The notes: generated from the letters alone by a model not told the origin. A DNA stretch of 64,000 nt from Candidatus Vogelbacteria bacterium RIFOXYD1_FULL_44_32 (GCA_001823065.1 MHTJ01000003.1:181460-245459), one strand, 5' to 3'; positions 2,010-63,727 are shown, counted from the stretch's first letter. Numbers and translations: made by a program.

Positions 2010-4691
2010 ATGCCTCCTTTTCAAAAATTTACATCTAAAGCCCGAGAAGTTATCCGCAAGGCTCATGAGCTGGCCATTGAGCGGGGTCAAAACCATGTCA
2101 GCCCGACTCATTTGTTGGCGGCTTTACTGTTGCAGGAAGACAGCACCACGGTTTCGATTATTGAAAAGCTTGAGGTAGATAGTCTGATGCTGACCGACTA
2201 TATTTTAGACCTAATGGAAACCCCCGAGGGGGCGACCGTGGCCTCGCCCTCCTATCAGATTTATCTAACCCCAGAATTGGTCCGCATTTTTGATTCCGCT
2301 TCCAAGGTTGCTGATAGTTTAAGTGATGAATTTGTTTCGACCGAGCATTTACTTATATCACTACTTGATGTTTCGAGTGATGCCCGCGATATTTTAAATC
2401 GGTTTAAGGTTACCAAAGAGGTGGTGCTAAAGGTGGTCGAGGAACTGCGGGCCGGGGTGGTGAAGGATATTGACCAGCCCAAGAAAAATAAAGCGGTTGA
2501 AAAATTTACTCGTAATCTAACTGATTTAGCGCGGGCCGATAAGCTGGACCCAGTCATCGGTCGTGACCAGGAAATTCGACGGATTATGGAAATACTTTCG
2601 CGCCGGACTAAAAATAATCCGATCTTGATTGGCGAAGCGGGCACTGGTAAAACCGCGATTGCCGAAGGGCTGGCGGTCCGGATTGCTAAAGGCGATGTGC
2701 CGGAGTCACTAAAGGATAAAGAAATTGCTTCTCTGGATTTAGGCTTGCTAATTGCTGGGACTAAATATCGGGGCGAGTTTGAGGAACGATTAAAAAATTT
2801 GATTAAGGAGATTGAACGGGCCGAAGGACGGATTATTTTATTTATTGATGAAATGCATACATTGGTCGGCGCCGGTAGTGCCGAAGGGGCCATCGACGCT
2901 TCTAATATGCTAAAGCCGGCGCTGGCGCGGGGTGAATTGCGGGTGATCGGGGCCACCACACTGAAAGAATATCAAAAACATATTGAAAAGGATCAGGCCC
3001 TGACTCGGCGGTTTCAACCAATTCACGTCGAGGAGCCCACCGTGGAAGACGCGACAGCTATTTTGCGGGGCTTGAAGGACCGTTATGAAATCCATCATGG
3101 GGTACATATTACTGACGATGCTATTATATCCGCGGTCAATTTATCTTCACGTTATATTACCGATCGTTTTTTACCCGACAAAGCCATCGACTTGATCGAT
3201 GAAGCGGCGTCGGCCCTTCGGCTACAGTTAGAAAATAAACCGGCCGCGCTGGAAGACGCCGAGCGTAAAATTATGCGTCTGGAAGTTGAAAAAGAAGCGA
3301 TGAAAAAAGAAGTCGAGATCAATGACGACTCGACCGCTAAAACGCGGATTAAGGATATTGAGCAAGAAATTGGCAATTTGAAAGAAAAAACCTCGGAGCT
3401 GGAATTGCGCTGGAAAAATGAGAAGGAAATAATCGGCGAAGTGCGCGCTGACAAAGAAAAACTAGAGGGACTACGGCTCGAGGCCCAACAGGCCGAAATT
3501 CATGCCGAATTGACCAGAGCAGCCGAAATACGCTATGGCGAGATTCCGGTGCTAGAAAAGGAGATTAAGACCAAAGAAGCCAAATTAAAACGGTTGCAAA
3601 GCCAGCGGCGGATTTTAAAGGAAGAAGTGACCGAGGAAGAGATTGCCCGAGTGGTCGCCCGTTGGACGGGTATACCAGTGGTCCGCATGCTTGAAGAAGA
3701 AGCGGATAAATTGGCGCGGATGGAGGATGGACTAAAAGGTAAAGTGCGGGGCCAAGACGATGCGATTGAGAAAATTTCGGCCGCGGTCCGCCGGAGCCGG
3801 GCGGGTATTTCTGACCCCGACCGACCGATTGGTTCGTTTATTTTCCTTGGGCCAACCGGTGTCGGTAAGACCGAGCTCGCGAAAAAATTGGCGGAATTTA
3901 TGTTTAATGATGAAAAATCTTTAATCAGAGTGGATATGTCGGAATATATGGAAAAATATTCCGTGTCTAAAATGATTGGCGCCGCGCCGGGCTATGTCGG
4001 CTACGATGAGGGTGGGGCGCTCACTGAGCTGGTGCGCCATCGACCATATTCAGTTTTACTCTTTGATGAGATTGAGAAAGCTCATCCGGAGGTGTTTAAT
4101 ATATTATTGCAAGTTCTCGATAATGGCCGATTGACCGACTCGAAAGGACGGGTAGTGAATTTCAAAAATACCGTTATCATCTTGACTTCCAATTTGGGTA
4201 GTCAGTTTATGAACCGGTTTCAAAAGATTGGTTTTGGGACTGGTGGCGAAGAAGCGCAGTTTAGCGAAGTTAAAGAAAAAGTCATGGATACAGTTAAAGA
4301 AAGCTTCAAGCCGGAATTTTTGAATCGCCTCGATGATATTATTATTTTCAACCCGCTAAACGCCGAAGTAATACGCGATATTGTATCGATTCAACTAGAT
4401 ATCGTGCGTAAACGGCTTTTATTGAAAGGAATTAAGCTAGAAATTTCGGATGAGGTAGTTTCCTATTTAGCGAAGGAGGGATTTAATCCCGAGTATGGGG
4501 CCCGACCGCTAAAACGGCTGATTCAAAACCGCATTCTCAATAAAGTGGCGGAGTTTATTATTTCGCGGCGAGTGGAAAATGGGGGGATTGTGAAAGTCTC
4601 CATTCGCGACAACGAACCAGTCATTGAACTCAAAAAAAGCTATAGTGTGCGTGGTGGCAAGAAGACCAATGAGTACACGCAGACGGTGTAG
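2010..4691 (+). CDS. clpB: ClpB chaperone (AAA+ disaggregase)
   Basis: 893 aa. It has the Clp N-domain repeats, a D1 Walker A GEAGTGKTAIAEGLA, a long coiled-coil middle domain, a D2 Walker A GPTGVGKTELAK and the sensor-2 motif GARPLKR. Confidence 0.92.
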   Translation: MPPFQKFTSKAREVIRKAHELAIERGQNHVSPTHLLAALLLQEDSTTVSIIEKLEVDSLMLTDYILDLMETPEGATVASPSYQIYLTPELVRIFDSASKVADSLSDEFVSTEHLLISLLDVSSDARDILNRFKVTKEVVLKVVEELRAGVVKDIDQPKKNKAVEKFTRNLTDLARADKLDPVIGRDQEIRRIMEILSRRTKNNPILIGEAGTGKTAIAEGLAVRIAKGDVPESLKDKEIASLDLGLLIAGTKYRGEFEERLKNLIKEIERAEGRIILFIDEMHTLVGAGSAEGAIDASNMLKPALARGELRVIGATTLKEYQKHIEKDQALTRRFQPIHVEEPTVEDATAILRGLKDRYEIHHGVHITDDAIISAVNLSSRYITDRFLPDKAIDLIDEAASALRLQLENKPAALEDAERKIMRLEVEKEAMKKEVEINDDSTAKTRIKDIEQEIGNLKEKTSELELRWKNEKEIIGEVRADKEKLEGLRLEAQQAEIHAELTRAAEIRYGEIPVLEKEIKTKEAKLKRLQSQRRILKEEVTEEEIARVVARWTGIPVVRMLEEEADKLARMEDGLKGKVRGQDDAIEKISAAVRRSRAGISDPDRPIGSFIFLGPTGVGKTELAKKLAEFMFNDEKSLIRVDMSEYMEKYSVSKMIGAAPGYVGYDEGGALTELVRHRPYSVLLFDEIEKAHPEVFNILLQVLDNGRLTDSKGRVVNFKNTVIILTSNLGSQFMNRFQKIGFGTGGEEAQFSEVKEKVMDTVKESFKPEFLNRLDDIIIFNPLNAEVIRDIVSIQLDIVRKRLLLKGIKLEISDEVVSYLAKEGFNPEYGARPLKRLIQNRILNKVAEFIISRRVENGGIVKVSIRDNEPVIELKKSYSVRGGKKTNEYTQTV

Positions 4692-4716
4692 GGAATGAAT
4701 AATTTAGTTATGAGTC

Positions 4717-4753
4717 AAAAACCCCCGCGAGCCTAGGCTCGCGGGGGTTTTTG
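4717..4753 (+). terminator. Rho-independent terminator after clpB
   Basis: Perfect 12-bp stem CCCCCGCGAGCC/GGCTCGCGGGGG followed by TTTTT. Confidence 0.85.
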
Positions 4754-4793
4754 ACTCAGGACCATTTTTTGTGTAATAATACTCTTGTTTAAT

Positions 4794-4876
4794 GCGTCGG
4801 TGGTGGAGTGGTCAATCACAACAGACTGTAAATCTGTCGCCTTACGGCTACGCAGGTTCGAATCCTGCCCGGCGCA
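4794..4876 (+). tRNA. tRNA-Tyr (anticodon GUA), long variable arm
   Basis: Hand-folded. Acceptor GCGTCGG/CCGGCGC with discriminator A. Anticodon loop CUGUAAA. T-arm CAGGTTCGAATCCTG. 83 nt, no encoded CCA. Confidence 0.85.
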
Positions 4877-4903
4877 CAAAAAATCCCCGTTAGGGGATTT
4901 TGT

Positions 4904-5033
4904 GCGCCGGGAGCAAAGCACCTGCGTGCTTTGCGTCAGGATTCGAAAGACTTTTCGTTATCAAATATTTGCTAAGAATATTTGGTCGAAAAGTACTCGC
5001 CCCCGTAGGGGGAGAATCCTGCCCGGCGCACCA
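4904..5033 (+). ncRNA. tRNA-adjacent structured element E1 (candidate tRNA-mimic RNA ending in CCA)
   Basis: The 5' end GCGCCGG pairs with the 3' end CCGGCGC-A-CCA. The 3' terminal 17 nt copy the tRNA-Tyr 3' end. Internal 9-bp hairpin GCAAAGCAC-CTGC-GTGCTTTGC. Helix CTTTTCG/CGAAAAG. Conserved CGCCCCCGTAGGGGGAGA. It is homologous to E2 at 57844-57963, with compensatory changes in both helices. Confidence 0.5.
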
Positions 5034-5061
5034 ATGATACTTTATGTGTTATTATAAATAA

Positions 5062-5832
5062 ATGAAGAAAATAGTAAAAAGAAGAAAAATACTAATTCTC
5101 GGGTTAGGTATTATCCTTTTCGGATTATTGCTAGGGTACCGATTTATTTCCAGAGAAACCATTCCTTTGTCTATATATAAGGGTGAGTTTGGAGACTCCC
5201 GAGACAATCCTCAAGGGATAAGAAAAGTTCAAGGTAAATACATAAATTTGGATTCTAAAAACAAGCTATACAAAAGCAAGGATTTAGGAATATCAATCAT
5301 TGTCCCAGCAGATTATACTGATTCAACATCTGCAAATGATGATAACTCTGCATACTATGAGCGCCCTAATGGCGATTTTGCTTACACAACTTATAGACTG
5401 TTTCGTCCTTTAGAAAGTCAGAAAGATCAAAATGAGCTTTTATTTGTCTACCAAGGCATCAACATCTATAAAGCGGCTGTTAGGGAAGATAAAAACACAT
5501 TAGCATTGATTCAGAGTGGGGATAATTTTTATGATATTAATAATTCAATGTGGAGTCCTGAAAGACAAAAAATTAATAGTTATCTTAAACAGACAAATTA
5601 CAAAGTCTCATTAGTTAATATTGGAAATAAAAAATTTATTAAAGTAAGCTATGGCTTGTCTTACTGTTATGAAGGACCTTGCCCAGATGAAAACATCCAC
5701 TTCTATACGCTTAATAATAGGGGTGATATTTATTATGATATTAGTTATACGTCCTTCGAGACAAATACACCATGGCTTGTGCAAAAAGCAGAATATGAAA
5801 AAATCATTAAAAGTATTAAAATAATCGATTAG
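5062..5832 (+). CDS. Hypothetical protein with N-terminal signal anchor, AT-rich
   Basis: 256 aa ORF with an N-terminal hydrophobic helix. GC is clearly lower than the flanking genes. It lies immediately after tRNA-Tyr and E1. Confidence 0.55.
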   Translation: MKKIVKRRKILILGLGIILFGLLLGYRFISRETIPLSIYKGEFGDSRDNPQGIRKVQGKYINLDSKNKLYKSKDLGISIIVPADYTDSTSANDDNSAYYERPNGDFAYTTYRLFRPLESQKDQNELLFVYQGINIYKAAVREDKNTLALIQSGDNFYDINNSMWSPERQKINSYLKQTNYKVSLVNIGNKKFIKVSYGLSYCYEGPCPDENIHFYTLNNRGDIYYDISYTSFETNTPWLVQKAEYEKIIKSIKIID

Positions 5833-5906
5833 TATAATTTCAAGGCAGAGTCTTCCTTTTTGTAGCTCTCTATGCTACAGTATTCCGGTACCTAATTTAG
5901 ATATCT

Positions 5907-6062
5907 ATGTCCCAAAATAACCTAATCAAACTAAGCAATAAGGAAACTGGTGAATCTTACTGGACTCGCAAAAACAAGAAAAAGGTGGAGCGGAAAATTG
6001 AGGTCAAAAAATACAGCAAAAAGCTCAAAAAGCACGTCAAATTCACGGAGTCGAAGAAGTAA
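5907..6062 (+). CDS. rpmG: 50S ribosomal protein L33 (non-zinc form), 51 aa. Missing from the ORF track because it is under 60 aa.
   Basis: Manual translation MSQNNLIKLSNKETGESYWTRKNKKKVERKIEVKKYSKKLKKHVKFTESKK matches the L33 pattern (Y.T.KN....R.E.KKY......H..F.E.K). The overlapping 71-aa ORF at 5950..6165 is in another frame and runs across a tRNA. Confidence 0.7.
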   Translation: MSQNNLIKLSNKETGESYWTRKNKKKVERKIEVKKYSKKLKKHVKFTESKK

Positions 6063-6093
6063 AAAACAACCCCAAACAGGGGTTGTTTTTTAC
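6061..6093. terminator. Bidirectional terminator hairpin between rpmG (+) and tRNA-Trp (-)
   Basis: AAAAAACAACCCC-aaaca-GGGGTTGTTTTTT. Confidence 0.75.
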
Positions 6094-6094
6094 T

Positions 6095-6169
6095 TGGCGG
6101 GCCCACGAGGACTCGAACCTCGAACTACGGTTTTGGAGACCGGCGTTTTACCATTGAAACTATAGGCCC
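6095..6169 (-). tRNA. tRNA-Trp (anticodon CCA), CCA encoded
   Basis: The reverse complement reads GGGCCTATAGTTTCAATGGTAAAACGCCGGTCTCCAAAACCGTAGTTCGAGGTTCGAGTCCTCGTGGGCCCGCCA. Anticodon loop CUCCAAA. T-arm CGAGGTTCGAGTCCTCG. Confidence 0.85.
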
Positions 6170-6220
6170 ATATCTTAAAATCTCAATCAACCAATTCTAG
6201 CATTTACGATAAGGTGTCGT

Positions 6221-18987: not shown

Positions 18988-21447
18988 ATGGCTCACCCCC
19001 TCCGTCACATAGTCGTCGGCACTGAATTTTATCCGGCCTATCATCTGGAAAGTCTTTTTTCGCACCATCGGCGCCATCAGATTTTGAGGATTTTTACTAC
19101 TGTCACAACCATCCTAATCATCGTGGCGATTTTGCAATTTTTTCTAGCCTCTTTGTCACTACTGCCGACTGACCATTTCTTTATTTCTTGGTTGGCGGAA
19201 AAAGTTTTGGCTCTAATATTTATTTTTTTACCCTTAGCTACCGCCCTCTATTGTCTCGAAGCCTTTTTTCGCTCGTATTTTATGACGGAAGAAAAAAGAG
19301 TAGGTCAAACTTCACCTTTTGTTTATGAAGTTGGTCACATTTTATATACAGCCAAGAGTGAAGATATTTTGACCGCTTTCTTGTCAGCCATCTATGGTCG
19401 GAGGATTATGCTTAGACTAGGTCTGGGGCCGGCCGAGATTAAAAGTCTAATTATTGGTCGGGCTCTAACCAAAAGTGATTTACCAGTAGGCACGGCCGGG
19501 CCTCTAACCCTGGTTGAGCTGACTCAATATCTTTGGTCAACCAATAAAGATTTTTCCGATTTACTGTTTACGGCTGGAGTGCAGGCCACTGACCTAGTTG
19601 GGGCCAGTGCTTGGGTGGAGCGGGATCTAGAGGAAGAAAAGGAGGCAGAGTGTTGGTGGCGCCGGGATAAACTTGAAGCCATACCCAGTCTTGGCCGTGA
19701 TATGGCCTATGGTACAGTCTACACTCTAAAGCGCTATGGCGCGGAAATGAAGGTGCCAGCTAGTCTTATCCGCTTTGCGGCCACTCTGCGCCAAAAAGAA
19801 GTTAAACAACTAGAGACTACTTTACAGCGGGGGCGTGAGACCAATGCTCTGCTAGTGGGGGAGACGCATGAGGCCGCTTTAGAAACTTTACGGCAGTTGG
19901 CTAGTCGGATTAAGGCTGGCGTGGTTGGCCACGAGCTTGAACATCGGCGGGTTTTTGTTTTTGATACAGCTCTTTTTCTGTCTAGTTTTAAAAATAAAAG
20001 TGAAATGGAGTTGGAATTTCAAAAGGCCATGACCGAAGCGGTGCAAGCCGGCAACTTGATTTTAGTTCTAAACTCGCTGGAAACTTTACTTCATGGTTTT
20101 GAATCTATGGGCAGTGAGGCCGTGGCTTTGCTAGAGCCCTACTTAAAATCTTCTCGGCTCCAAATTGTGGGCATAGTTGAAAACGCTGTTTTTCAGCAGG
20201 CGATCGGGCCCGGGAGCGTCTTGTCTTCTTTATTTGAAAAAATTGTAGTCGCTAATCCGGAGCCGGCTGATTTGGTTTGGCTGTTGGAGCGAGCGGCAGG
20301 CCAGGCGGAAGTTGAACATAGTTTGTTTTTCACTTATCAATCACTGGTGACGATGATTGAGAGTGCCGTCCAATATTACAGTGGTGATAATATTTTAGAT
20401 AAAGCGCTTGATATTTTAACGGAAGTGTCTATTGCCCTAGCTAAAGCCGGTAAAACTGTGGTGAGTAAGGCCGATATTTTAGAGTTTGTCGGTAAAAAAA
20501 CCAATATCCCCCTCGGTGTAATTTCGCCTGAGGAAAAAACTAAGTTGTTGGATTTGGAAAAGATTTTACACGAGCGGGTTATTGGCCAAGACGAGGCGGT
20601 AAGAGCGGTAGCCGAAAGTTTACGACGGGCCCGCGCCGCCACAACCAATCCTAGCCGGCCCCTCGGGACCTTTCTTTTTCTTGGCCCGACTGGGGTGGGC
20701 AAAACCGAAACAGCCAAGGCCCTGGCCGCTGTATTTTTTAATGATGAAAATAAAATGTTGCGACTAGATATGTCCGAATATCAAGGGACCGAGGCCCTAG
20801 GGGCATTGGTCGGCTCCTTTGCCTCCGGCAAAGCGGGCTTGCTTTCCACGATGTTGCGGGAAAAACCTTATGCGGTATTACTTTTAGATGAATTTGAAAA
20901 AGCCTCAGCCGAAGTGCGTAATTTATTTTTGCAAATTCTCGACGAGGGGCGGTTTGCCGATGGGAGTGGTAAGCCAGTCAATGCCCGTAATACTATTATT
21001 GTGGCCACTTCTAATGCTGGCGCCGATTATATCTGGGAGAAAATAAGTGGCGGTGAAAGTACTGCTTCGATTAAAACTGAACTCATAGATCGGTTGGTCA
21101 AAGCGGGGACCTATACGCCAGAGCTTCTAAACCGCTTTGATGCCGTGGTGGTTTTTCATCCGTTGGTGGGCGAAAATTTGCAACAGGTGGCCGGTCTGAT
21201 GCTCGGCAAGCTGGCCGAGCGTCTGGCCAAGCAGGGGCTTAAACTTATCGTTACGCCCGAGCTATCTTTATATGTGGCTCAAAACGGGGCTGATCCAAAA
21301 TTTGGGGCCCGGCCAATGAATCGTTTTATTCAAGACAAAATTGAAGCGGTGATAGCGGAGGCAATTATTCGTGACAGCTTAGGGGCGGGGACCACCATTA
21401 CCATTACTGGTTTTGCGACTGGAAAATTGGTAGTGGCTAGGGTCTAA
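18988..21447 (+). CDS. Membrane-anchored Clp/Hsp100-like AAA+ ATPase with a degenerate D1 and an intact D2
   Basis: N-terminal TM helices. The D1-like region has lost Walker A (LLVGETHEAALETL instead of GEPGVGKTA). D2 is canonical: GPTGVGKTETAKALA, LLLDEFEKA, sensor-2 GARPMNR. Confidence 0.75.
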   Translation: MAHPLRHIVVGTEFYPAYHLESLFSHHRRHQILRIFTTVTTILIIVAILQFFLASLSLLPTDHFFISWLAEKVLALIFIFLPLATALYCLEAFFRSYFMTEEKRVGQTSPFVYEVGHILYTAKSEDILTAFLSAIYGRRIMLRLGLGPAEIKSLIIGRALTKSDLPVGTAGPLTLVELTQYLWSTNKDFSDLLFTAGVQATDLVGASAWVERDLEEEKEAECWWRRDKLEAIPSLGRDMAYGTVYTLKRYGAEMKVPASLIRFAATLRQKEVKQLETTLQRGRETNALLVGETHEAALETLRQLASRIKAGVVGHELEHRRVFVFDTALFLSSFKNKSEMELEFQKAMTEAVQAGNLILVLNSLETLLHGFESMGSEAVALLEPYLKSSRLQIVGIVENAVFQQAIGPGSVLSSLFEKIVVANPEPADLVWLLERAAGQAEVEHSLFFTYQSLVTMIESAVQYYSGDNILDKALDILTEVSIALAKAGKTVVSKADILEFVGKKTNIPLGVISPEEKTKLLDLEKILHERVIGQDEAVRAVAESLRRARAATTNPSRPLGTFLFLGPTGVGKTETAKALAAVFFNDENKMLRLDMSEYQGTEALGALVGSFASGKAGLLSTMLREKPYAVLLLDEFEKASAEVRNLFLQILDEGRFADGSGKPVNARNTIIVATSNAGADYIWEKISGGESTASIKTELIDRLVKAGTYTPELLNRFDAVVVFHPLVGENLQQVAGLMLGKLAERLAKQGLKLIVTPELSLYVAQNGADPKFGARPMNRFIQDKIEAVIAEAIIRDSLGAGTTITITGFATGKLVVARV

Positions 21448-23046: not shown

Positions 23047-23117
23047 TGCCGGATCGTCTAAAGGTAGGACATGAGCCTTTGAAGCTCAGTATCTTGGTTC
23101 GATTCCAAGTCCGGCAG
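23047..23117 (+). tRNA. tRNA-Gln (anticodon UUG)
   Basis: U1:A72 acceptor (TGCCGGA/TCCGGCA, discriminator G). Anticodon loop CUUUGAA. T-arm TTGGTTCGATTCCAA. Confidence 0.8.
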
Positions 23118-23140
23118 CTAGGAGTTTTTTGTAAAAAACG

Positions 23141-23262
23141 ACGAGACTGTCCGGCTTGGAATCGAACAGGAGTGGGGTCGGGAGAACATATGGTCTCCCG
23201 TGGAGGAAGGATTGGGAAAACCGAGGGTTTCCCAGGGGTGAGATATCCAAGTCCGGTAGCCA
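23141..23262 (+). ncRNA. Diverged tRNA-adjacent structured element E3 (same family as E1/E2), ending ...TCCAAGTCCGGTAG-CCA
   Basis: The 5' part GTCCGGCTTGGAATCGAAC is the reverse complement of the tRNA-Gln 3' end. The 3' part copies the tRNA-Gln 3' end plus CCA. Internal GTCGGGAG... and GGGAAACC/GGTTTCCC-AGGGG-GAGA-ATCC resemble the E1/E2 core. Confidence 0.3.
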
Positions 23263-23279: not shown

Positions 23280-23630
23280 ATGCTTAGCTTAAATACAATC
23301 ATGAAAAATAATTATGGTTTACCAAAAACAGAATTGCAAAAAATCTTTGAAAGAGACAAGGTTTGTGTCTACTGTAAAAAGAAAATGCTTGGACACATTT
23401 CAGATAACCCTCGTAGCGATTGGTATACTATTGAGCATTTAAATTATTTGCCACCATGGAATAACCCAAGCACCGTTACTATTTGTTGTTGGGGTTGTAA
23501 CTCTAGTCGTGGAAATAAAAAGATTAGGGATTGGTTTAAAACCCCTTATTGTTTAGATAAAAATATTAATGAAAAAACCGTATCAAAGTTTGTGTATAGA
23601 TATATATCAGATGTTGAGGATAGGAAATAA
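23280..23630 (+). CDS. HNH endonuclease, AT-rich
   Basis: CVYCKKKM...TIEHL...ICCWGCNSSRGNK gives the CxxC...H...N...CxxC HNH pattern. About 33% GC. Confidence 0.6.
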   Translation: MLSLNTIMKNNYGLPKTELQKIFERDKVCVYCKKKMLGHISDNPRSDWYTIEHLNYLPPWNNPSTVTICCWGCNSSRGNKKIRDWFKTPYCLDKNINEKTVSKFVYRYISDVEDRK

Positions 23631-51479: not shown

Positions 51480-51481
51480 TG

Positions 51482-51553
51482 TGCTCTCGGCCGGAGTCGA
51501 ACCGGCATTACCAGCTTCGGAGGCCAGCGTTCTATCCATTAAACTACGAGGGC
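51482..51553 (-). tRNA. tRNA-Arg (anticodon CCG)
   Basis: The reverse complement reads GCCCTCGTAGTTTAATGGATAGAACGCTGGCCTCCGAAGCTGGTAATGCCGGTTCGACTCCGGCCGAGAGCA. Anticodon loop CUCCGAA. T-arm GCCGGTTCGACTCCGGC. One C:A mismatch and two G:U pairs in the stems. Confidence 0.7.
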
Positions 51554-52362: not shown

Positions 52363-52438
52363 TGGTGGACCCTATCGGATTCGAACCGATGACCTCCTCA
52401 TTGCAAATGAGGCGCTCTACCAACTAAGCTAAGGGCCC
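52363..52438 (-). tRNA. tRNA-Ala (anticodon UGC), CCA encoded
   Basis: The reverse complement reads GGGCCCTTAGCTTAGTTGGTAGAGCGCCTCATTTGCAATGAGGAGGTCATCGGTTCGAATCCGATAGGGTCCACCA. Confidence 0.85.
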
Positions 52439-57843: not shown

Positions 57844-57963
57844 TGGTGGACCCACGGGGAGTCTCCCCCTACGGGGGCGGGTACTTTTCCGTCTCATTTC
57901 ATTCGACAAGGAAAAGTCTTTCGACTTCCCGACGTGAGTGAAGCAGTTCACTCACTTGGGCCC
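57844..57963 (-). ncRNA. tRNA-adjacent structured element E2 (homologue of E1), ending ...CCCCGTGGGTCCA-CCA with a G3:U70 acceptor
   Basis: The reverse complement reads GGGCCCA-AGTGAGTGAA-CTGC-TTCACTCAC-GTCGGGAAGTCGAAAGACTTTTCC-...-GGAAAAGTACCCGCCCCCGTAGGGGGAGACTCCCCGTGGGTCCACCA. The ends are copied from, and complementary to, the adjacent tRNA-Ala(GGC). Confidence 0.5.
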
Positions 57964-58005
57964 ACCCTACAAAAATGGCTCACCGAAAGATCGGTTAGCT
58001 CATTT

Positions 58006-58076
58006 TTGTAAGTGTGGACCCACGGGGAGTCGAACCCCGGACTCGTCCATGCCATGGACGCGTGTTACCACTATAC
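58006..58076 (-). tRNA. tRNA-Ala (anticodon GGC), G3:U70 present
   Basis: The reverse complement reads GGGCCCATAGTATAGTGGTAACACGCGTCCATGGCATGGACGAGTCCGGGGTTCGACTCCCCGTGGGTCCA. Anticodon loop AUGGCAU. Confidence 0.8.
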
Positions 58077-58255
58077 TATGGGCCCTAAAACACCCCTGAT
58101 TTCATTGGGGTGTTCGGGCAAACATTTGGTTACAAATGTTTTAGCCCTAAAACTCCCAGATATACTAAACGCTGTTCGGGCGATCATCTGCAAGGGCAGA
58201 TGATTTAGCCTAAAACATCATTGTTTGAAAAAATAACACATTTCTGTTACATTTC
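58069..58255. repeat. Three tandem roughly 62-nt hairpin units beginning (T)TAGCC(C)TAAAAC, abutting the tRNA-Ala(GGC) 5' end
   Basis: Units at about 58071, 58132 and 58196. Each has the CTAAAAC junction (the first is the tRNA 5' end GGGCCC+TAAAAC). The first two carry GTTCGGGC plus a long hairpin (GGGCAAACATTTG-gtta-CAAATGTTTTAGCCC, and GGCGATCATCTGC-aagg-GCAGATGATTTAGCC). Confidence 0.45.
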
Positions 58256-60808: not shown

Positions 60809-63727
60809 ATGAAGTCCTACGATCATAAAAAAATCGAAAAGAAGTGGCAGAAGGATTGGGCTAAGTCTGGTTTGTACGAAACCAAAGATAATTCTAAAAA
60901 ACCAAAGTTTTATTGTTTAGACATGTTCCCTTACCCGTCGGGTGAAGGGCTCCATGTTGGTCACCCCAAGGGCTATATTGCCACCGATATTTATAGTCGG
61001 TATATGCGGATGAAGGGTTTTAATGTTTTACACCCGATGGGTTGGGACGCTTTTGGACTACCGGCCGAAAATTATGCCATCAAAAACAAAGTTCACCCGA
61101 AAATTTCGACCGCTAAAAATATCAAGCACTACAAACAGCAACTAGAAATGCTGGGTCTGTCTTACGACTGGACCAGGGAAATAGACACCACCGACCCTGC
61201 TTACTATCGGTGGACGCAGTGGATTTTCTTGCAGATGTTTAAGCAGGGTTTGGCCTATGAGTCCTATGAGCCGATCAACTGGTGCCCATCGTGCCAGACG
61301 GGCCTCGCCAACGAAGACCTAGAAGACGGCAAGTGCGAACGCTGTGGCTCGGAAATAGAGAAGAAACCTATGCGCCAATGGGTGCTAAAGATTACCGACT
61401 ACGCTGATCGACTTTTAAATGATTTAAGTACGACCGACTACGACCGACCAAAGATTATTGACAAAACAAACCCTCCTATCAAAGGATCGCCTTTTGTTGA
61501 AAGAAATGTTGCTCATGCTATTGTTTTTGATCCTAAAAATAAAAAATATCTCATTATTAGAAACAAAAAACACGGCTGGGACACGTTGGTGATTGGTGGT
61601 ATTGAAAAAGGAGAAACTGCTGAAGAAACCGCTCGGCGGGAAGTAAGGGAAGAAACTGGCTACACCGATCTTGAATTTAAAAAAATATTGGGGGGTGAAA
61701 CCGAAGCTCACTATTACGCTAAACACAAAGGTGAAAACCGGATTGCTTTTGCTACGGCTGTTTATTTTGAATTAAAAAGTAATAAACGGGTGCCGATCGC
61801 CGACGGTGAAGACGCGGCCGATGAAGTGCTGTGGATTGAGGAAAAAGATTTCGTGCCGGGGAAAATGATTAACGCTGAACTGCCGGTCTGGCTCGCGCGA
61901 CTCAAAAATCCAAAACTAGGCTGGCCTAAACCGCTGCTCGAGTGGCCCGAATCAATTAAAGAAGCCCAGCGCAATTGGATTGGCCGAAGTGAAGGTCTGC
62001 TTTTTACTGCCCCAGTTAAAGATACTGACATTAAAATCCAAACATTCAGTGCTCACTTTGAAGCATTTTATGCCGATACTTTTGTAGTTATCGCACCTGA
62101 CCATCCGTTGTTACCCCAACTGGTAGCCGGTACTGCAAATGAAAAAGAGGTTCTAAAATTTTCCCAAGATTTAGTTAAAAAAAGAATCAAGGAAGGTTTT
62201 AATGCCAACAAAGAGCCGGAGGGTATATTTACTGGTCGCTATATTGTGGACCCAATCGGTAACGGTGATCTACCAATTTGGGTGGCCAATTTTGCCATTG
62301 CTGACTATGGCACCGGCATAGTAAAGGCCTCTTGTCACGATGAACGCGATTTTGCTTTTGCTAAAAAATATAATATTAAAATGAAGCCAGTGTTGTTTCC
62401 GGCTGATCCAGCCGAGAAGGCGAAGGTGAAAAATCTGGAAGTTTGTTATTTTGATATGAAAAATGGTCTATTGGCCGAACCAGCCGAATTTGCGGGTAAA
62501 AAAGCGGGAGATATTAGAGCTGATATTGCCAATTTTGCGGTTAAAAAAGGTCTGGCCGTTAAAAAAGTGAGCTATAAACTGCGCGACTGGGTCTTCTCTC
62601 GCCAGCGCTATTGGGGTGAGCCTATCCCACTCATTCATTGCGAGAAATGCGGCGTGGTCGCGGTACCAGAAAAAGATTTGCCAGTGGAACTACCCAAAGT
62701 AAAAAGCTATGCACCGACCGGTACAGGGGAGTCGCCGCTAGCCGATATTAAAAGTTGGGTCAATACGAAGTGCCCCACCTGTAAAGGCCCAGCGAAGCGC
62801 GAAACCAACACTATGCCCCAATGGGCAGGCTCGTCTTGGTATTATTTGCGCTACATGGATCCTAAAAATAAGAAAGCTTTAGTGGATTCAACCAAAGAAA
62901 AATATTGGTCACCAGTTGACCTCTATGTCGGCGGGACCGAACACGCCACTCGTCACCTTATTTACGCCCGCTTTTGGCATAAGTTTTTAAATGATATTAA
63001 AGTGGTTTCCACCAATGAACCTTTTAAGCGCTTTGGCAAAAGTCTGGGCCTCGTTTTAGGTGAAGATGGCCGCAAAATGAGCAAGCGCTGGGGTAATGTC
63101 GTAAACCCCGACGAGGTGGTAGCGACCTACGGTGCCGACACGATGCGCTTGTACGAAATGTTTATGGGTCCGTTTGACCAAGAAATAGCGTGGAATACTC
63201 AAAGCATGATTGGCTCGCGGCGTTTTTTGGAGAAAGTTTGGAAACTGAGTGAAAAAGTAGGCAAGAAAACTACTCCAGAGATAGCGGTTGATTTGCATCG
63301 GACGGTCAAAAAAGTGGGCGAGGATATTGAAAGCTTTAATTTTAACACTGCTGTTTCCAGCTTGATGATTTTGGCTAATAGTCTAGAGAAATGTGAGACT
63401 ATTGCCCGAGCCGATTTTGAGGCTTTAATTAAGCTTTTAGCCCCTTTTTCACCCCATATAGCCGAGGAATTGTGGTCTGGTAAAGGTTCGGTGCATAACG
63501 CGCCTTGGCCAATATATGACGAGGCCAAAACAATATCAGCCATGGTCACGATTATTATTCAAGTGAATGGCAAAGTGAGGGGGAATATTAATGTCAAAAT
63601 GGGTACAGTTGAGACCACAGTGGTAGAAGAAGCGATGTCTTGTGCTAGTGTCGCCATGCATATTTCTGGTAAGGAAATAAAAAAGACTATCTTTATCCCC
63701 AATAAGTTGGTTAATTTTGTGGTGTAA
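60809..63727 (+). CDS. leuS: Leucyl-tRNA synthetase carrying an inserted Nudix hydrolase domain (roughly aa 207-377; nt 61427-61940)
   Basis: HIGH motif (HVGHP). KMSKS motif (KMSKRWGN). CP1 editing motifs (TGIVKASCHDERD). Anticodon-binding and C-terminal domains present. Between LLNDL and EWPESIKEAQRNWIGRSEG, which are contiguous in E. coli LeuRS, lies a full Nudix fold with the box GGIEKGETAEETARREVREETGY. Confidence 0.9.
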   Translation: MKSYDHKKIEKKWQKDWAKSGLYETKDNSKKPKFYCLDMFPYPSGEGLHVGHPKGYIATDIYSRYMRMKGFNVLHPMGWDAFGLPAENYAIKNKVHPKISTAKNIKHYKQQLEMLGLSYDWTREIDTTDPAYYRWTQWIFLQMFKQGLAYESYEPINWCPSCQTGLANEDLEDGKCERCGSEIEKKPMRQWVLKITDYADRLLNDLSTTDYDRPKIIDKTNPPIKGSPFVERNVAHAIVFDPKNKKYLIIRNKKHGWDTLVIGGIEKGETAEETARREVREETGYTDLEFKKILGGETEAHYYAKHKGENRIAFATAVYFELKSNKRVPIADGEDAADEVLWIEEKDFVPGKMINAELPVWLARLKNPKLGWPKPLLEWPESIKEAQRNWIGRSEGLLFTAPVKDTDIKIQTFSAHFEAFYADTFVVIAPDHPLLPQLVAGTANEKEVLKFSQDLVKKRIKEGFNANKEPEGIFTGRYIVDPIGNGDLPIWVANFAIADYGTGIVKASCHDERDFAFAKKYNIKMKPVLFPADPAEKAKVKNLEVCYFDMKNGLLAEPAEFAGKKAGDIRADIANFAVKKGLAVKKVSYKLRDWVFSRQRYWGEPIPLIHCEKCGVVAVPEKDLPVELPKVKSYAPTGTGESPLADIKSWVNTKCPTCKGPAKRETNTMPQWAGSSWYYLRYMDPKNKKALVDSTKEKYWSPVDLYVGGTEHATRHLIYARFWHKFLNDIKVVSTNEPFKRFGKSLGLVLGEDGRKMSKRWGNVVNPDEVVATYGADTMRLYEMFMGPFDQEIAWNTQSMIGSRRFLEKVWKLSEKVGKKTTPEIAVDLHRTVKKVGEDIESFNFNTAVSSLMILANSLEKCETIARADFEALIKLLAPFSPHIAEELWSGKGSVHNAPWPIYDEAKTISAMVTIIIQVNGKVRGNINVKMGTVETTVVEEAMSCASVAMHISGKEIKKTIFIPNKLVNFVV

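Follow-up and report, generated by a model that had tools for sequence, protein, structure and literature searches.

We analysed a stretch of 64,000 nucleotides (nt) of chromosomal DNA from Candidatus Vogelbacteria bacterium RIFOXYD1_FULL_44_32 (MHTJ01000003.1:181460-245459), hereafter the window. The organism belongs to the candidate phyla radiation (CPR, or Patescibacteria), and the window carries seven tRNA genes (ARAGORN, Rfam) among ordinary housekeeping genes; the ClpB encoded there is 100% identical to the one in bin RIFOXYD1_FULL_44_32. Three of these tRNA genes, for Tyr, Ala(GGC) and Gln, are followed by short elements designated E1, E2 and E3 (Table 1), which with moderate confidence we take to be miniature, protein-less and non-autonomous insertion elements specific to the 3' ends of Patescibacteria tRNA genes. 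An original prediction, made from the sequence alone, had grouped E1 and E2 with two further elements, E3 and E4, and offered a tRNA-mimic RNA or a miniature mobile element as explanations. Its observation on E1 and E2 was largely right, but overall it is only partly confirmed, and its interpretation is partly supported.

Anatomy of E1, E2 and E3

Three segments derived from the tRNA recur in the description below: a, the 3' end of the tRNA gene itself (for tRNA-Tyr its last 21 nt, 4857-4877, T54-C74); b, an antisense arm; and c, a distal copy of the tRNA end. The tRNA-Tyr gene ends in N73-C followed by AAAAAA, with CCA not encoded. In E1 the spacer hairpin joins with a and b into a single long near-perfect palindrome. 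The acceptor part of b (bAcc) pairs 10/10 with a and 10/10 with c, the hairpin hp1 is placed exactly between bAcc and the T-stem-complementary part of b (bT), and bT pairs with the start of c in helix P2, which closes the core. Within the core, junction GAAA is followed by P3 (GACTTTTCG / CGAAAAGT-C, 4949-4996) bearing a variable hairpin extension, then by junction TCG, P4 (CCCCC-GTA-GGGGG, 5000-5012) and a final A. CA at 5032-5033 completes a CCA on c, and the element folds far better than its shuffles (z-score = -9.9).

Table 1. Positions of the elements, their segments and their host tRNA genes in the window
Feature	Coordinates	Strand	Description
tRNA-Tyr(GTA)	4794-4877	+	ARAGORN; Rfam tRNA 61.3 bits
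Spacer hairpin (sp), E1	4878-4901	+	AAAAAATCCCC-GTTA-GGGGATTTT, flanked by A- and T-runs
E1	4902-5033	+	Directly 3' of tRNA-Tyr and spacer hairpin
bAcc, E1	4902-4911	+	GTGCGCCGGG, reverse complement of tRNA nt 65-74
hp1, E1	4913-4934	+	GCAAAGCAC-CTGC-GTGCTTTGC, 9-bp hairpin
bT, E1	4937-4947	+	CAGGATTCGAA, reverse complement of tRNA nt 54-64
Type-A core, E1	4948-5013 (66 nt)	+	Covariance model R1, 119.7 bits
c, E1	5014-5031	+	GAATCCTGCCCGGCGCAC, 18/18 to tRNA-Tyr nt 57-74
tRNA-Gln(TTG)	23047-23118	+	Ends N73-C then TAGG; no CCA (ARAGORN)
E3 spacer	23119-23146	+	
E3	23147-23262 (with spacer 23119-23262)	+	After tRNA-Gln, layout as E1/E2
Arm b, E3	23147-23166	+	CTGTCCGGCTTGGAATCGAA, continuous, hp1 absent; bT exact
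Core, E3	23167-23241 (75 nt)	+	Different, unplaced type, unrelated to type A
c, E3	23242-23260	+	GATATCCAAGTCCGGTAGC, one extra base and one substitution relative to tRNA
c, E2	57846-57863	-	18/18 to tRNA-Ala(GGC); CA at 57844-57845
Type-A core, E2	57864-57919	-	
bT, E2	57920-57931	-	CGGGAAGTCGAA
hp1, E2	57934-57955	-	GTGAGTGAA-CTGC-TTCACTCAC
bAcc, E2	57957-57965	-	GTGGGCCCA, G opposite T70
E2	57844-57965	-	Behind tRNA-Ala(GGC), same plan as E1; R1 score 105.7 bits
E2 spacer	57966-58013	-	Imperfect long hairpin between A- and T-runs
tRNA-Ala(GGC)	58014-58085	-	Ends N73-C then ACTTAC; no CCA (ARAGORN, Rfam)

Direct reading together with computation bears out the plan that had been proposed for E1 and E2, namely an arm complementary to the tRNA 3' end, a CTGC hairpin, a core and a copy of the tRNA end (z-score of E2 = -5.4). 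The 9-bp CTGC hairpins can be read directly to have unrelated stems in the two elements, and the compensatory change CTTTTCG:CGAAAAG versus CTTTTCC:GGAAAAG is real (alignment columns 46:84). The closing copy matches nt 57-74 of the respective tRNA at 18/18 positions and continues with CA in both, and E2 keeps G3:U70, with the G of its bAcc opposite T70. A block GTC(A/G)GGA..TCGAA that had been described as conserved is indeed seen, but it is largely the reverse complement of each tRNA's own T-arm, and it looks conserved because T-arms are alike between tRNAs.

The inclusion of E3 in the same family holds for its layout but not for its core, which is missed by the type-A covariance model R1, folds no better than shuffles (z = -0.8) and has no relatives among the loci examined. 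CA at 23261-23262 completes CCA on its c as well. The announced E4 was not found in the window by a repeated tRNA-tail search, by motif searches with all core types or by R1; a tail-like match at 62244-62259 was rejected because it sits inside a coding region. Directly after E3 lies an open reading frame (ORF) of 116 aa (23280-23630, +) with an HNH-type signature by eye (CVYC ... IEHL ... CCWGCNSSRGNK). It was discarded as a mobilising enzyme, being not recurrent in other loci and without a Pfam or NCBIfam match.

A tRNA-specific family with covarying cores

An exact-motif scan over one genome per species gave ten loci, all labelled CPR, and a degenerate scan of metagenomes gave 16. Four more loci were fetched by ClpB synteny and pooled with the scan loci and the window (individual loci carry L numbers). 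Core-motif matches stand directly 3' of a same-strand tRNA in 10/10 genome loci and 15/16 metagenome loci, the sole false one among the latter, L022, being a chance match. The further copies on which the original prediction depended are found by these scans at many tRNAs of other CPR genomes and metagenomes, the host tRNAs including Ile, Glu, Tyr, Leu, Lys, Val, Arg, Ser, Met, Gln, His and others, and identical core motifs are shared by such distant CPR lineages as Saccharibacteria and Vogelbacteria.

The arms were examined in 69 distinct tRNA genes with sufficient flank on both sides, from 28 related loci. The reverse complement of a gene's own nt 54-64 lies within 170 nt downstream in 45 of the 69 genes, compared with 4/69 upstream and 2/69 for the reversed control, and an exact 8-mer is present downstream in 27/69, upstream in 0/69 and in 3/326 wrong-tRNA controls. 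These counts show that the arms are specific to the adjacent tRNA. Protein-less structured elements of about 130-200 nt thus stand behind roughly two thirds of the sampled Patescibacteria tRNA genes. One spacer subtype (ACGAACGAAGTGAG) recurs together with hp1 and core A around the tRNA-specific arms of five different tRNAs. At L005 (2054-2301), convergent tRNA-Val and tRNA-Lys genes 100 nt apart each have a spacer and an antisense acceptor arm, with one CTGC hairpin in common and no core between them.

The cores fall into at least two superfamilies, to which an optional hairpin module is added. The GTA-triloop class comprises types A, A', C and D and follows the plan bT - GAA - P3 with variable extension - (G)UAC.. 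- 5-bp P4 with GUA loop - A - c; a P4 stem of 5 bp with GTA triloop is present in 16/30 elements, and its sequence takes eight different forms. Class B cores start with ..CCGGAG.. and end with GAGTCGCGGGA or TTTGTGACC. The hairpin hp1 is a separable module found in 18/30 elements and with both core classes, always 9 bp long and always at the acceptor/T-stem boundary of the antisense arm. A single-pyrimidine bulge in the 3' strand of the P3 extension (GGTG-Y-CTYGG) is kept despite different stem sequences, as in the type-A elements at L002 4014-4137, L019 7-130 and L023 144-273.

The original prediction had inferred selection on single-strand structure from two compensatory substitutions, and the larger sample upholds it. 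In an alignment of 16 type-A copies, 95.7% of cells pair as against 81.2% in shuffles (0/500 as high), 18 of the 35 pairs show changes in both partners, and in slid controls the paired share is 36-54%. Covariation is seen at 7/9 pairs of hp1 and in distal P3, while within type A neither proximal P3 nor P4 varies; a compensatory change also separates the spacer stems of L005 and L030. At type-A elements the long palindrome of a, spacer and b keeps its structure without keeping its sequence, as is found in recombination sites folded from single-stranded DNA (ssDNA). A hammerhead-type three-way junction was ruled out by inspection of the junction strands and by Rfam.

For the comparison of strands the palindromic arms were left out, whole type-A elements being unable to discriminate between them. 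The core then folds better on the tRNA-sense strand than on its complement in 26/28 elements, and for class B the bias is found in 11/11 elements, with a mean difference in folding free energy of -9.2 kcal/mol and 26 G.U pairs versus 10. Such a bias points to a sense molecule that is single-stranded and away from double-stranded sites for protein binding; together with the covariation it supports selection on structure, acting on the tRNA-sense strand. Neither the E1 spacer nor the E2 spacer (the latter on its own strand) scores as an intrinsic terminator, and tRNA-Tyr is preceded by a good promoter-like sequence, TTGACT-18-AATAAT (4751-4780), so that read-through into E1 is plausible. Another promoter-like sequence, TTTACT-16-TATAAT (10/12; 5078-5051, -), points into E1 from the far side, and a putative antisense RNA from it would have a 5' part complementary to the tRNA-Tyr 3' end including CCA. 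Antisense transcription was rejected, since E2 has no counterpart of this site and the cores fold better on the sense strand.

The comparison with Rfam that had been suggested, above all with tmRNA (transfer-messenger RNA) and tRNA-like families, matched no family. Rfam 15 at gathering score recognised only tRNA and rRNA in the window and loci L001-L010, and in E-value mode the non-tRNA matches at 4700-5100 were terminator-like noise outside the core. Models of tRNA and tmRNA (RF00005, RF00023, ARAGORN) and of group I and II introns found nothing at E1, E2 or E3, and the small self-cleaving ribozymes included in Rfam gave no match either. Full-text literature searches, and a term search in one paper on Patescibacteria tRNA introns, returned no published description of these elements, and the family is apparently undescribed.

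Direct repeats, stacks and a proposed mode of insertion

Among 47 elements detected by their T-arm complement, c is intact at 16/18 positions or better in 14, and in most copies it decays by deletion; CCA follows 4/10 perfect copies. In type A the acceptor half of c is usually deleted while b still matches the tRNA. Within class B, the element behind tRNA-Leu(taa) of L006, read closely, has a perfect c and a degenerate acceptor part of b, which is also degenerate at tRNA-Tyr of L031. The three c copies of the window carry CCA and their three tRNA genes do not; the only window genes that encode it are Trp (6095-6169) and Ala(TGC) (52363-52438), both element-free. CCA is present on all three copies of L034. 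Most tRNA genes in loci L001-L034, occupied or not, end in N73-CAA (or CAG/CAC) instead of CCA. At L009 (241-300) a stack of elements begins after ...TTCAATTCCCCGATGGGCACCA, which resembles a tRNA or tmRNA 3' end with CCA; ARAGORN and Rfam recognise no gene there, and Rfam found no family in L009 1-330.

These data bear on the proposal that the elements are small tRNA-like RNAs, which we consider unlikely without dismissing it. Transcripts reading through from the tRNA promoter would be cut by RNase P and RNase Z and end in a 3' CCA, serving as decoy, processing punctuation, primer or template; an acceptor/T-stem minihelix would be built from b and c, with hp1 in the place of the D/anticodon stack and the core in that of the T-loop. 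E1 and E2 fold exactly so, with the z-scores given above, and the fixed length and position of hp1, the folding preference for the tRNA-sense strand, the weakness of the spacers as terminators, the CCA on all three window copies and the G3.U70 of E2 are all in agreement. The family as a whole is not: c and its CCA are preserved in a minority of elements at the counts above, the acceptor part is usually deleted from type-A c and degenerate in the two class-B arms just mentioned, distal copies are fossils, no tRNA or tmRNA model matches, and E3 folds like shuffles. The frequent decay of c and loss of CCA indicate that the CCA-ended acceptor stem belongs to young copies, E1 and E2 among them, and not to the family. 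The tRNA-mimic RNA of the original prediction consequently fits the three window copies but not the family, in which a free acceptor stem with 3' CCA is no conserved trait and is present in the window copies only.

Elements that integrate into tRNA genes classically bring a replacement 3' end and displace the original distally. Read in this way, c would most simply be the displaced original end of the gene and a the replacement supplied by the element. The CCA carried in the window by c and by the two element-free genes, but not by the occupied ones, fits this picture; the N73-CAA endings found at occupied and unoccupied genes alike weigh against a firm assignment.

Occupation of the same tRNA gene differs between relatives. 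The genes for tRNA-Cys and tRNA-Leu(tag) are filled in one and empty in the other of L004 and L006, and those for Trp, Leu(caa) and Arg(ccg), occupied in L031-L033 or L016, have no element in the window. The Cys pair of L004 and L006 is the sole filled/empty pair that aligns on both flanks, a difference in the length of a C-run blurring the insertion point. The tRNA-Tyr gene is occupied in 7/7 relatives by differing cores: the window, L003 and L010 have type A, L031 and L033 have class B, L032 has class B with an older type A behind it, and L034 has type D together with a second unit. Several elements, often of mixed core types, are stacked behind one tRNA in L015, L001, L008, L016, L026, L009 and L032. 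In such stacks the proximal unit is intact and distal units are reduced to the 3' part of the core and the start of c. Three exact tandem type-A units of 136 nt follow tRNA-Met in L021 (135-508, -), and their distal repeat TTCCGTATCTGGGACAC does not match tRNA-Met. By these comparisons the elements behave like insertions, not like one conserved gene, and the miniature mobile element of the original prediction fits the many targets, the direct repeats, the stacks, the presence and absence at given tRNAs and the turnover of cores.

Two further observations concern occupied and empty sites. A perfect palindromic hairpin flanked by A and T lies 3' of tRNA-Arg(CCG) in the window, with no antisense arm, where its L016 counterpart bears a class-B element. 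In the close relatives L031 and L032 (12680-13450) a region that begins with tRNA-Tyr, contains rpmG and ends with tRNA-Trp has the opposite orientation to that in the window (4790-6170); its ends fall at tRNA genes bearing elements.

Direct repeats might also be left behind passively, either as attL/attR remnants of phages or islands with a lost interior or by template-switch growth of quasi-palindromes at tRNA terminators, and the elements would then have no function. The repeats of the tRNA 3' end from the T-loop on do resemble classic att duplications at tRNA genes, many copies are visibly decaying, and template-switch mutagenesis, which can correct quasi-palindromes, could keep b complementary to a without selection. 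The original prediction had held that elements bounded by target duplications or integrase genes would be att remnants; the duplications are always present, while integrases never are in the window. We think such scars very improbable, since Saccharibacteria and Vogelbacteria share identical core motifs, helices covary with conserved loops and bulge, folding is strand-biased, the same modules recur at many tRNAs, and about 420 kb of fetched sequence yielded no large version of the element.

The predicted minimum-free-energy structure of a joint transcript of tRNA-Tyr and E1 suggests yet another possibility. In it the 5' part of the tRNA pairs with c and a pairs with b through the spacer hairpin, giving the shape of a cloverleaf with an insertion of about 155 nt in the T-loop. 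An intron-like insertion of this kind would have c (with CCA) as its true 3' exon, b as an internal guide aligning nt 54-56 with nt 57-74, and a as a spare exon copy that makes splicing dispensable. It agrees with the complementarity of b to the ligated junction, including nt 54-56, which are missing from c. It agrees too with the host lineage, since Patescibacteria are unusually rich in tRNA and rRNA introns (PMC13011429; 10.1101/2025.07.03.662931). The reported tRNA introns belong, however, to group I and occupy anticodon-loop position 35/36; neither the T-loop nor the 3' end is their site (PMC13011429; 10.1101/2025.07.03.662931). Moreover, a complete tRNA is already encoded upstream, most copies have a decayed c, the cores are far below the size of any known self-splicing intron and unmatched by group I/II models, and a spliced intron would not be expected to leave stacks of remnants. 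An intron is therefore very unlikely in our view.

We return to insertion elements as the favoured reading. On the tRNA strand, the inserted unit would consist of a (nt 57-74, usually without CCA), the spacer hairpin, b (inverted nt 54-74, optionally split by the 9-bp CTGC hairpin), the core and c (nt 57-74), with a completing the gene. New copies would enter beside the tRNA and displace older ones outward, where decay follows. The active form may be a folded single strand of tRNA polarity, in which the a-spacer-b hairpin would imitate the duplex end of the tRNA gene, so that a recombinase acting in trans could exchange one strand with the gene, by analogy with CTXphi attP and integron attC. 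Single-strand integration of a folded hairpin predicts precisely the order a, loop, inverted copy, rest of the element, c, and on this analogy we would rank such a hairpin mimic first among the mechanisms.

Several points weigh against insertion elements of this kind. No integrase, transposase, HUH, Y1 or reverse transcriptase gene is found among the roughly 60 ORFs of the window, and all-against-all BLASTP of the ORFs of all loci yields only synteny groups and spurious ORFs, with no protein recurrent beside the elements. Free, circular or cargo-carrying forms were not seen, nor true matches in viral contigs: the type-A motif has none, four matches of a class-B 17-mer were dismissed as chance hits inside coding DNA, and BLAST of E1 against phages and plasmids gave no match. 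Any enzyme must therefore act in trans. The repeats themselves speak with two voices, b agreeing with c and not a in L001 and L005, and with a and not c in L021 and L030, so that either repeat may be the one that the element brought. Within one genome the copies differ in their hp1 and P3 extensions and so fall short of near-identity; there is hence no sign of recent bursts. The model also gives no account of how three tRNA-specific segments are rewritten on a change of tRNA. Finally, the sense-strand bias and the non-terminator spacers fit a read-through RNA at least as well as ssDNA, and a route through RNA would accommodate the strand bias just as well.

The interleaving of constant modules with three tRNA-specific segments is the least explained feature and the one most suggestive of templated retargeting. 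It could point to a retargetable, protein-less mobile element whose active form is the tRNA-sense read-through RNA. Since its arms imitate the acceptor/T minihelix of the host tRNA, this RNA would be trimmed by tRNA-processing enzymes; its return to tRNA genes would fall to a putative enzyme acting in trans, either a reverse transcriptase or an RNA-guided recombinase, and b would be a guide of about 21 nt rewritten for each tRNA. We hold this version to be rather improbable. A simpler role of b as primer-binding site for the mature tRNA 3' end was rejected, because b runs on into the complement of the genomic spacer and not of CCA.

Likeness to known systems and neighbouring genes

Among the closest known systems are the tRNA-targeting integrative elements, namely tyrosine-integrase phages and islands and cis-mobilizable CIME-type remnants. 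They enter a tRNA gene in its 3' part, beginning at the T-loop, rebuild the gene with their own copy, leave the displaced end as a direct repeat and accumulate in tandem. The corresponding traits are found here, a and c agreeing at 18/18 in E1 and E2, c being kept at 16/18 or better in 14 elements, and the tRNAs scoring as normal. Unlike those elements, which are kilobases long and carry their own integrase, the present ones are gene-less and 130-200 nt long, have an extra inverted copy of the target and a structured core, and occupy many tRNA species. With CTXphi attP(+) and other integrative mobile elements exploiting Xer (IMEX), and with integron attC sites, they share an imperfect palindrome, conservation of structure over sequence, a stem that reproduces the duplex target, the predicted order of repeats, and ordered arrays that arise from insertion beside a fixed site. 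They differ in that the target is a tRNA gene and not dif or attI, in having arms made for each tRNA, and in being tiny and cargo-less; no recombinase gene (Xer, IntI or similar) was identified near any element.

Short, gene-less, hairpin-rich, multi-copy and intergenic as they are, the elements also recall MITEs (miniature transposable elements with inverted repeats), repetitive extragenic palindromes (REP/REPIN) and palindromes derived from IS200/IS605 insertion sequences, the latter recognising their cleavage sites via an internal guide at the foot of a hairpin. Yet, unlike MITEs, their copies are not near-identical, their inverted arms derive from the target and are specific to each tRNA, the duplication is 18-20 nt long, and no parent insertion sequence was seen. 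Likewise, an 18-nt target duplication separates them from IS200/IS605 and from REP with its RAYT transposases, and neither a Y1 nor a RAYT transposase was found. Like the tRNA-like RNAs (the tRNA domain of tmRNA, viral 3' structures, mascRNA and YrlA), the ends of E1 and E2 can form an acceptor/T minihelix with CCA, but there is no T-loop/D-loop elbow, the arms copy the upstream tRNA, and acceptor stem and CCA are lost in most members. Mobile introns resemble them in an internal segment complementary to the insertion flank (the internal guide sequence of group I, the exon- and intron-binding sites EBS/IBS of group II) and in the intron-rich host lineage; here, by contrast, no needed gene copy is interrupted, the cores measure 55-125 nt, and intron models are unmatched. 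We class them as miniature integrative elements of a new sort, and there is a real chance that their mechanism is new as well.

Patescibacteria have some of the smallest bacterial genomes. The elements may therein represent either a very successful selfish element, which perhaps locates tRNA genes by means of a guide, or a so far unrecognised level in the organisation of the phylum's tRNA genes, and constant modules interleaved with tRNA-specific arms are the signature expected of a programmable targeting system. The three-way junction with its GUA triloop and the class-B fold are new candidate RNA or ssDNA motifs with a protein partner. At a practical level, the elements account for oddities of annotation such as fragments of tRNA 3' ends, lost encoded CCA, long palindromes and spurious ORFs behind tRNAs.

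Some features of the window lie outside the family. The acceptor stem of tRNA-Arg(CCG) (51481-51553, -) has an apparent C3-A70 mismatch. Two genes for ClpB-like AAA+ chaperones occur within 17 kb on the + strand (2010-4691 and 18988-21447), the second with no Clp_N domain or first AAA module detectable at E < 1e-8. In the leucyl-tRNA synthetase gene (60809-63727, +) a NUDIX domain (residues 233-350) is inserted in the N-terminal part.

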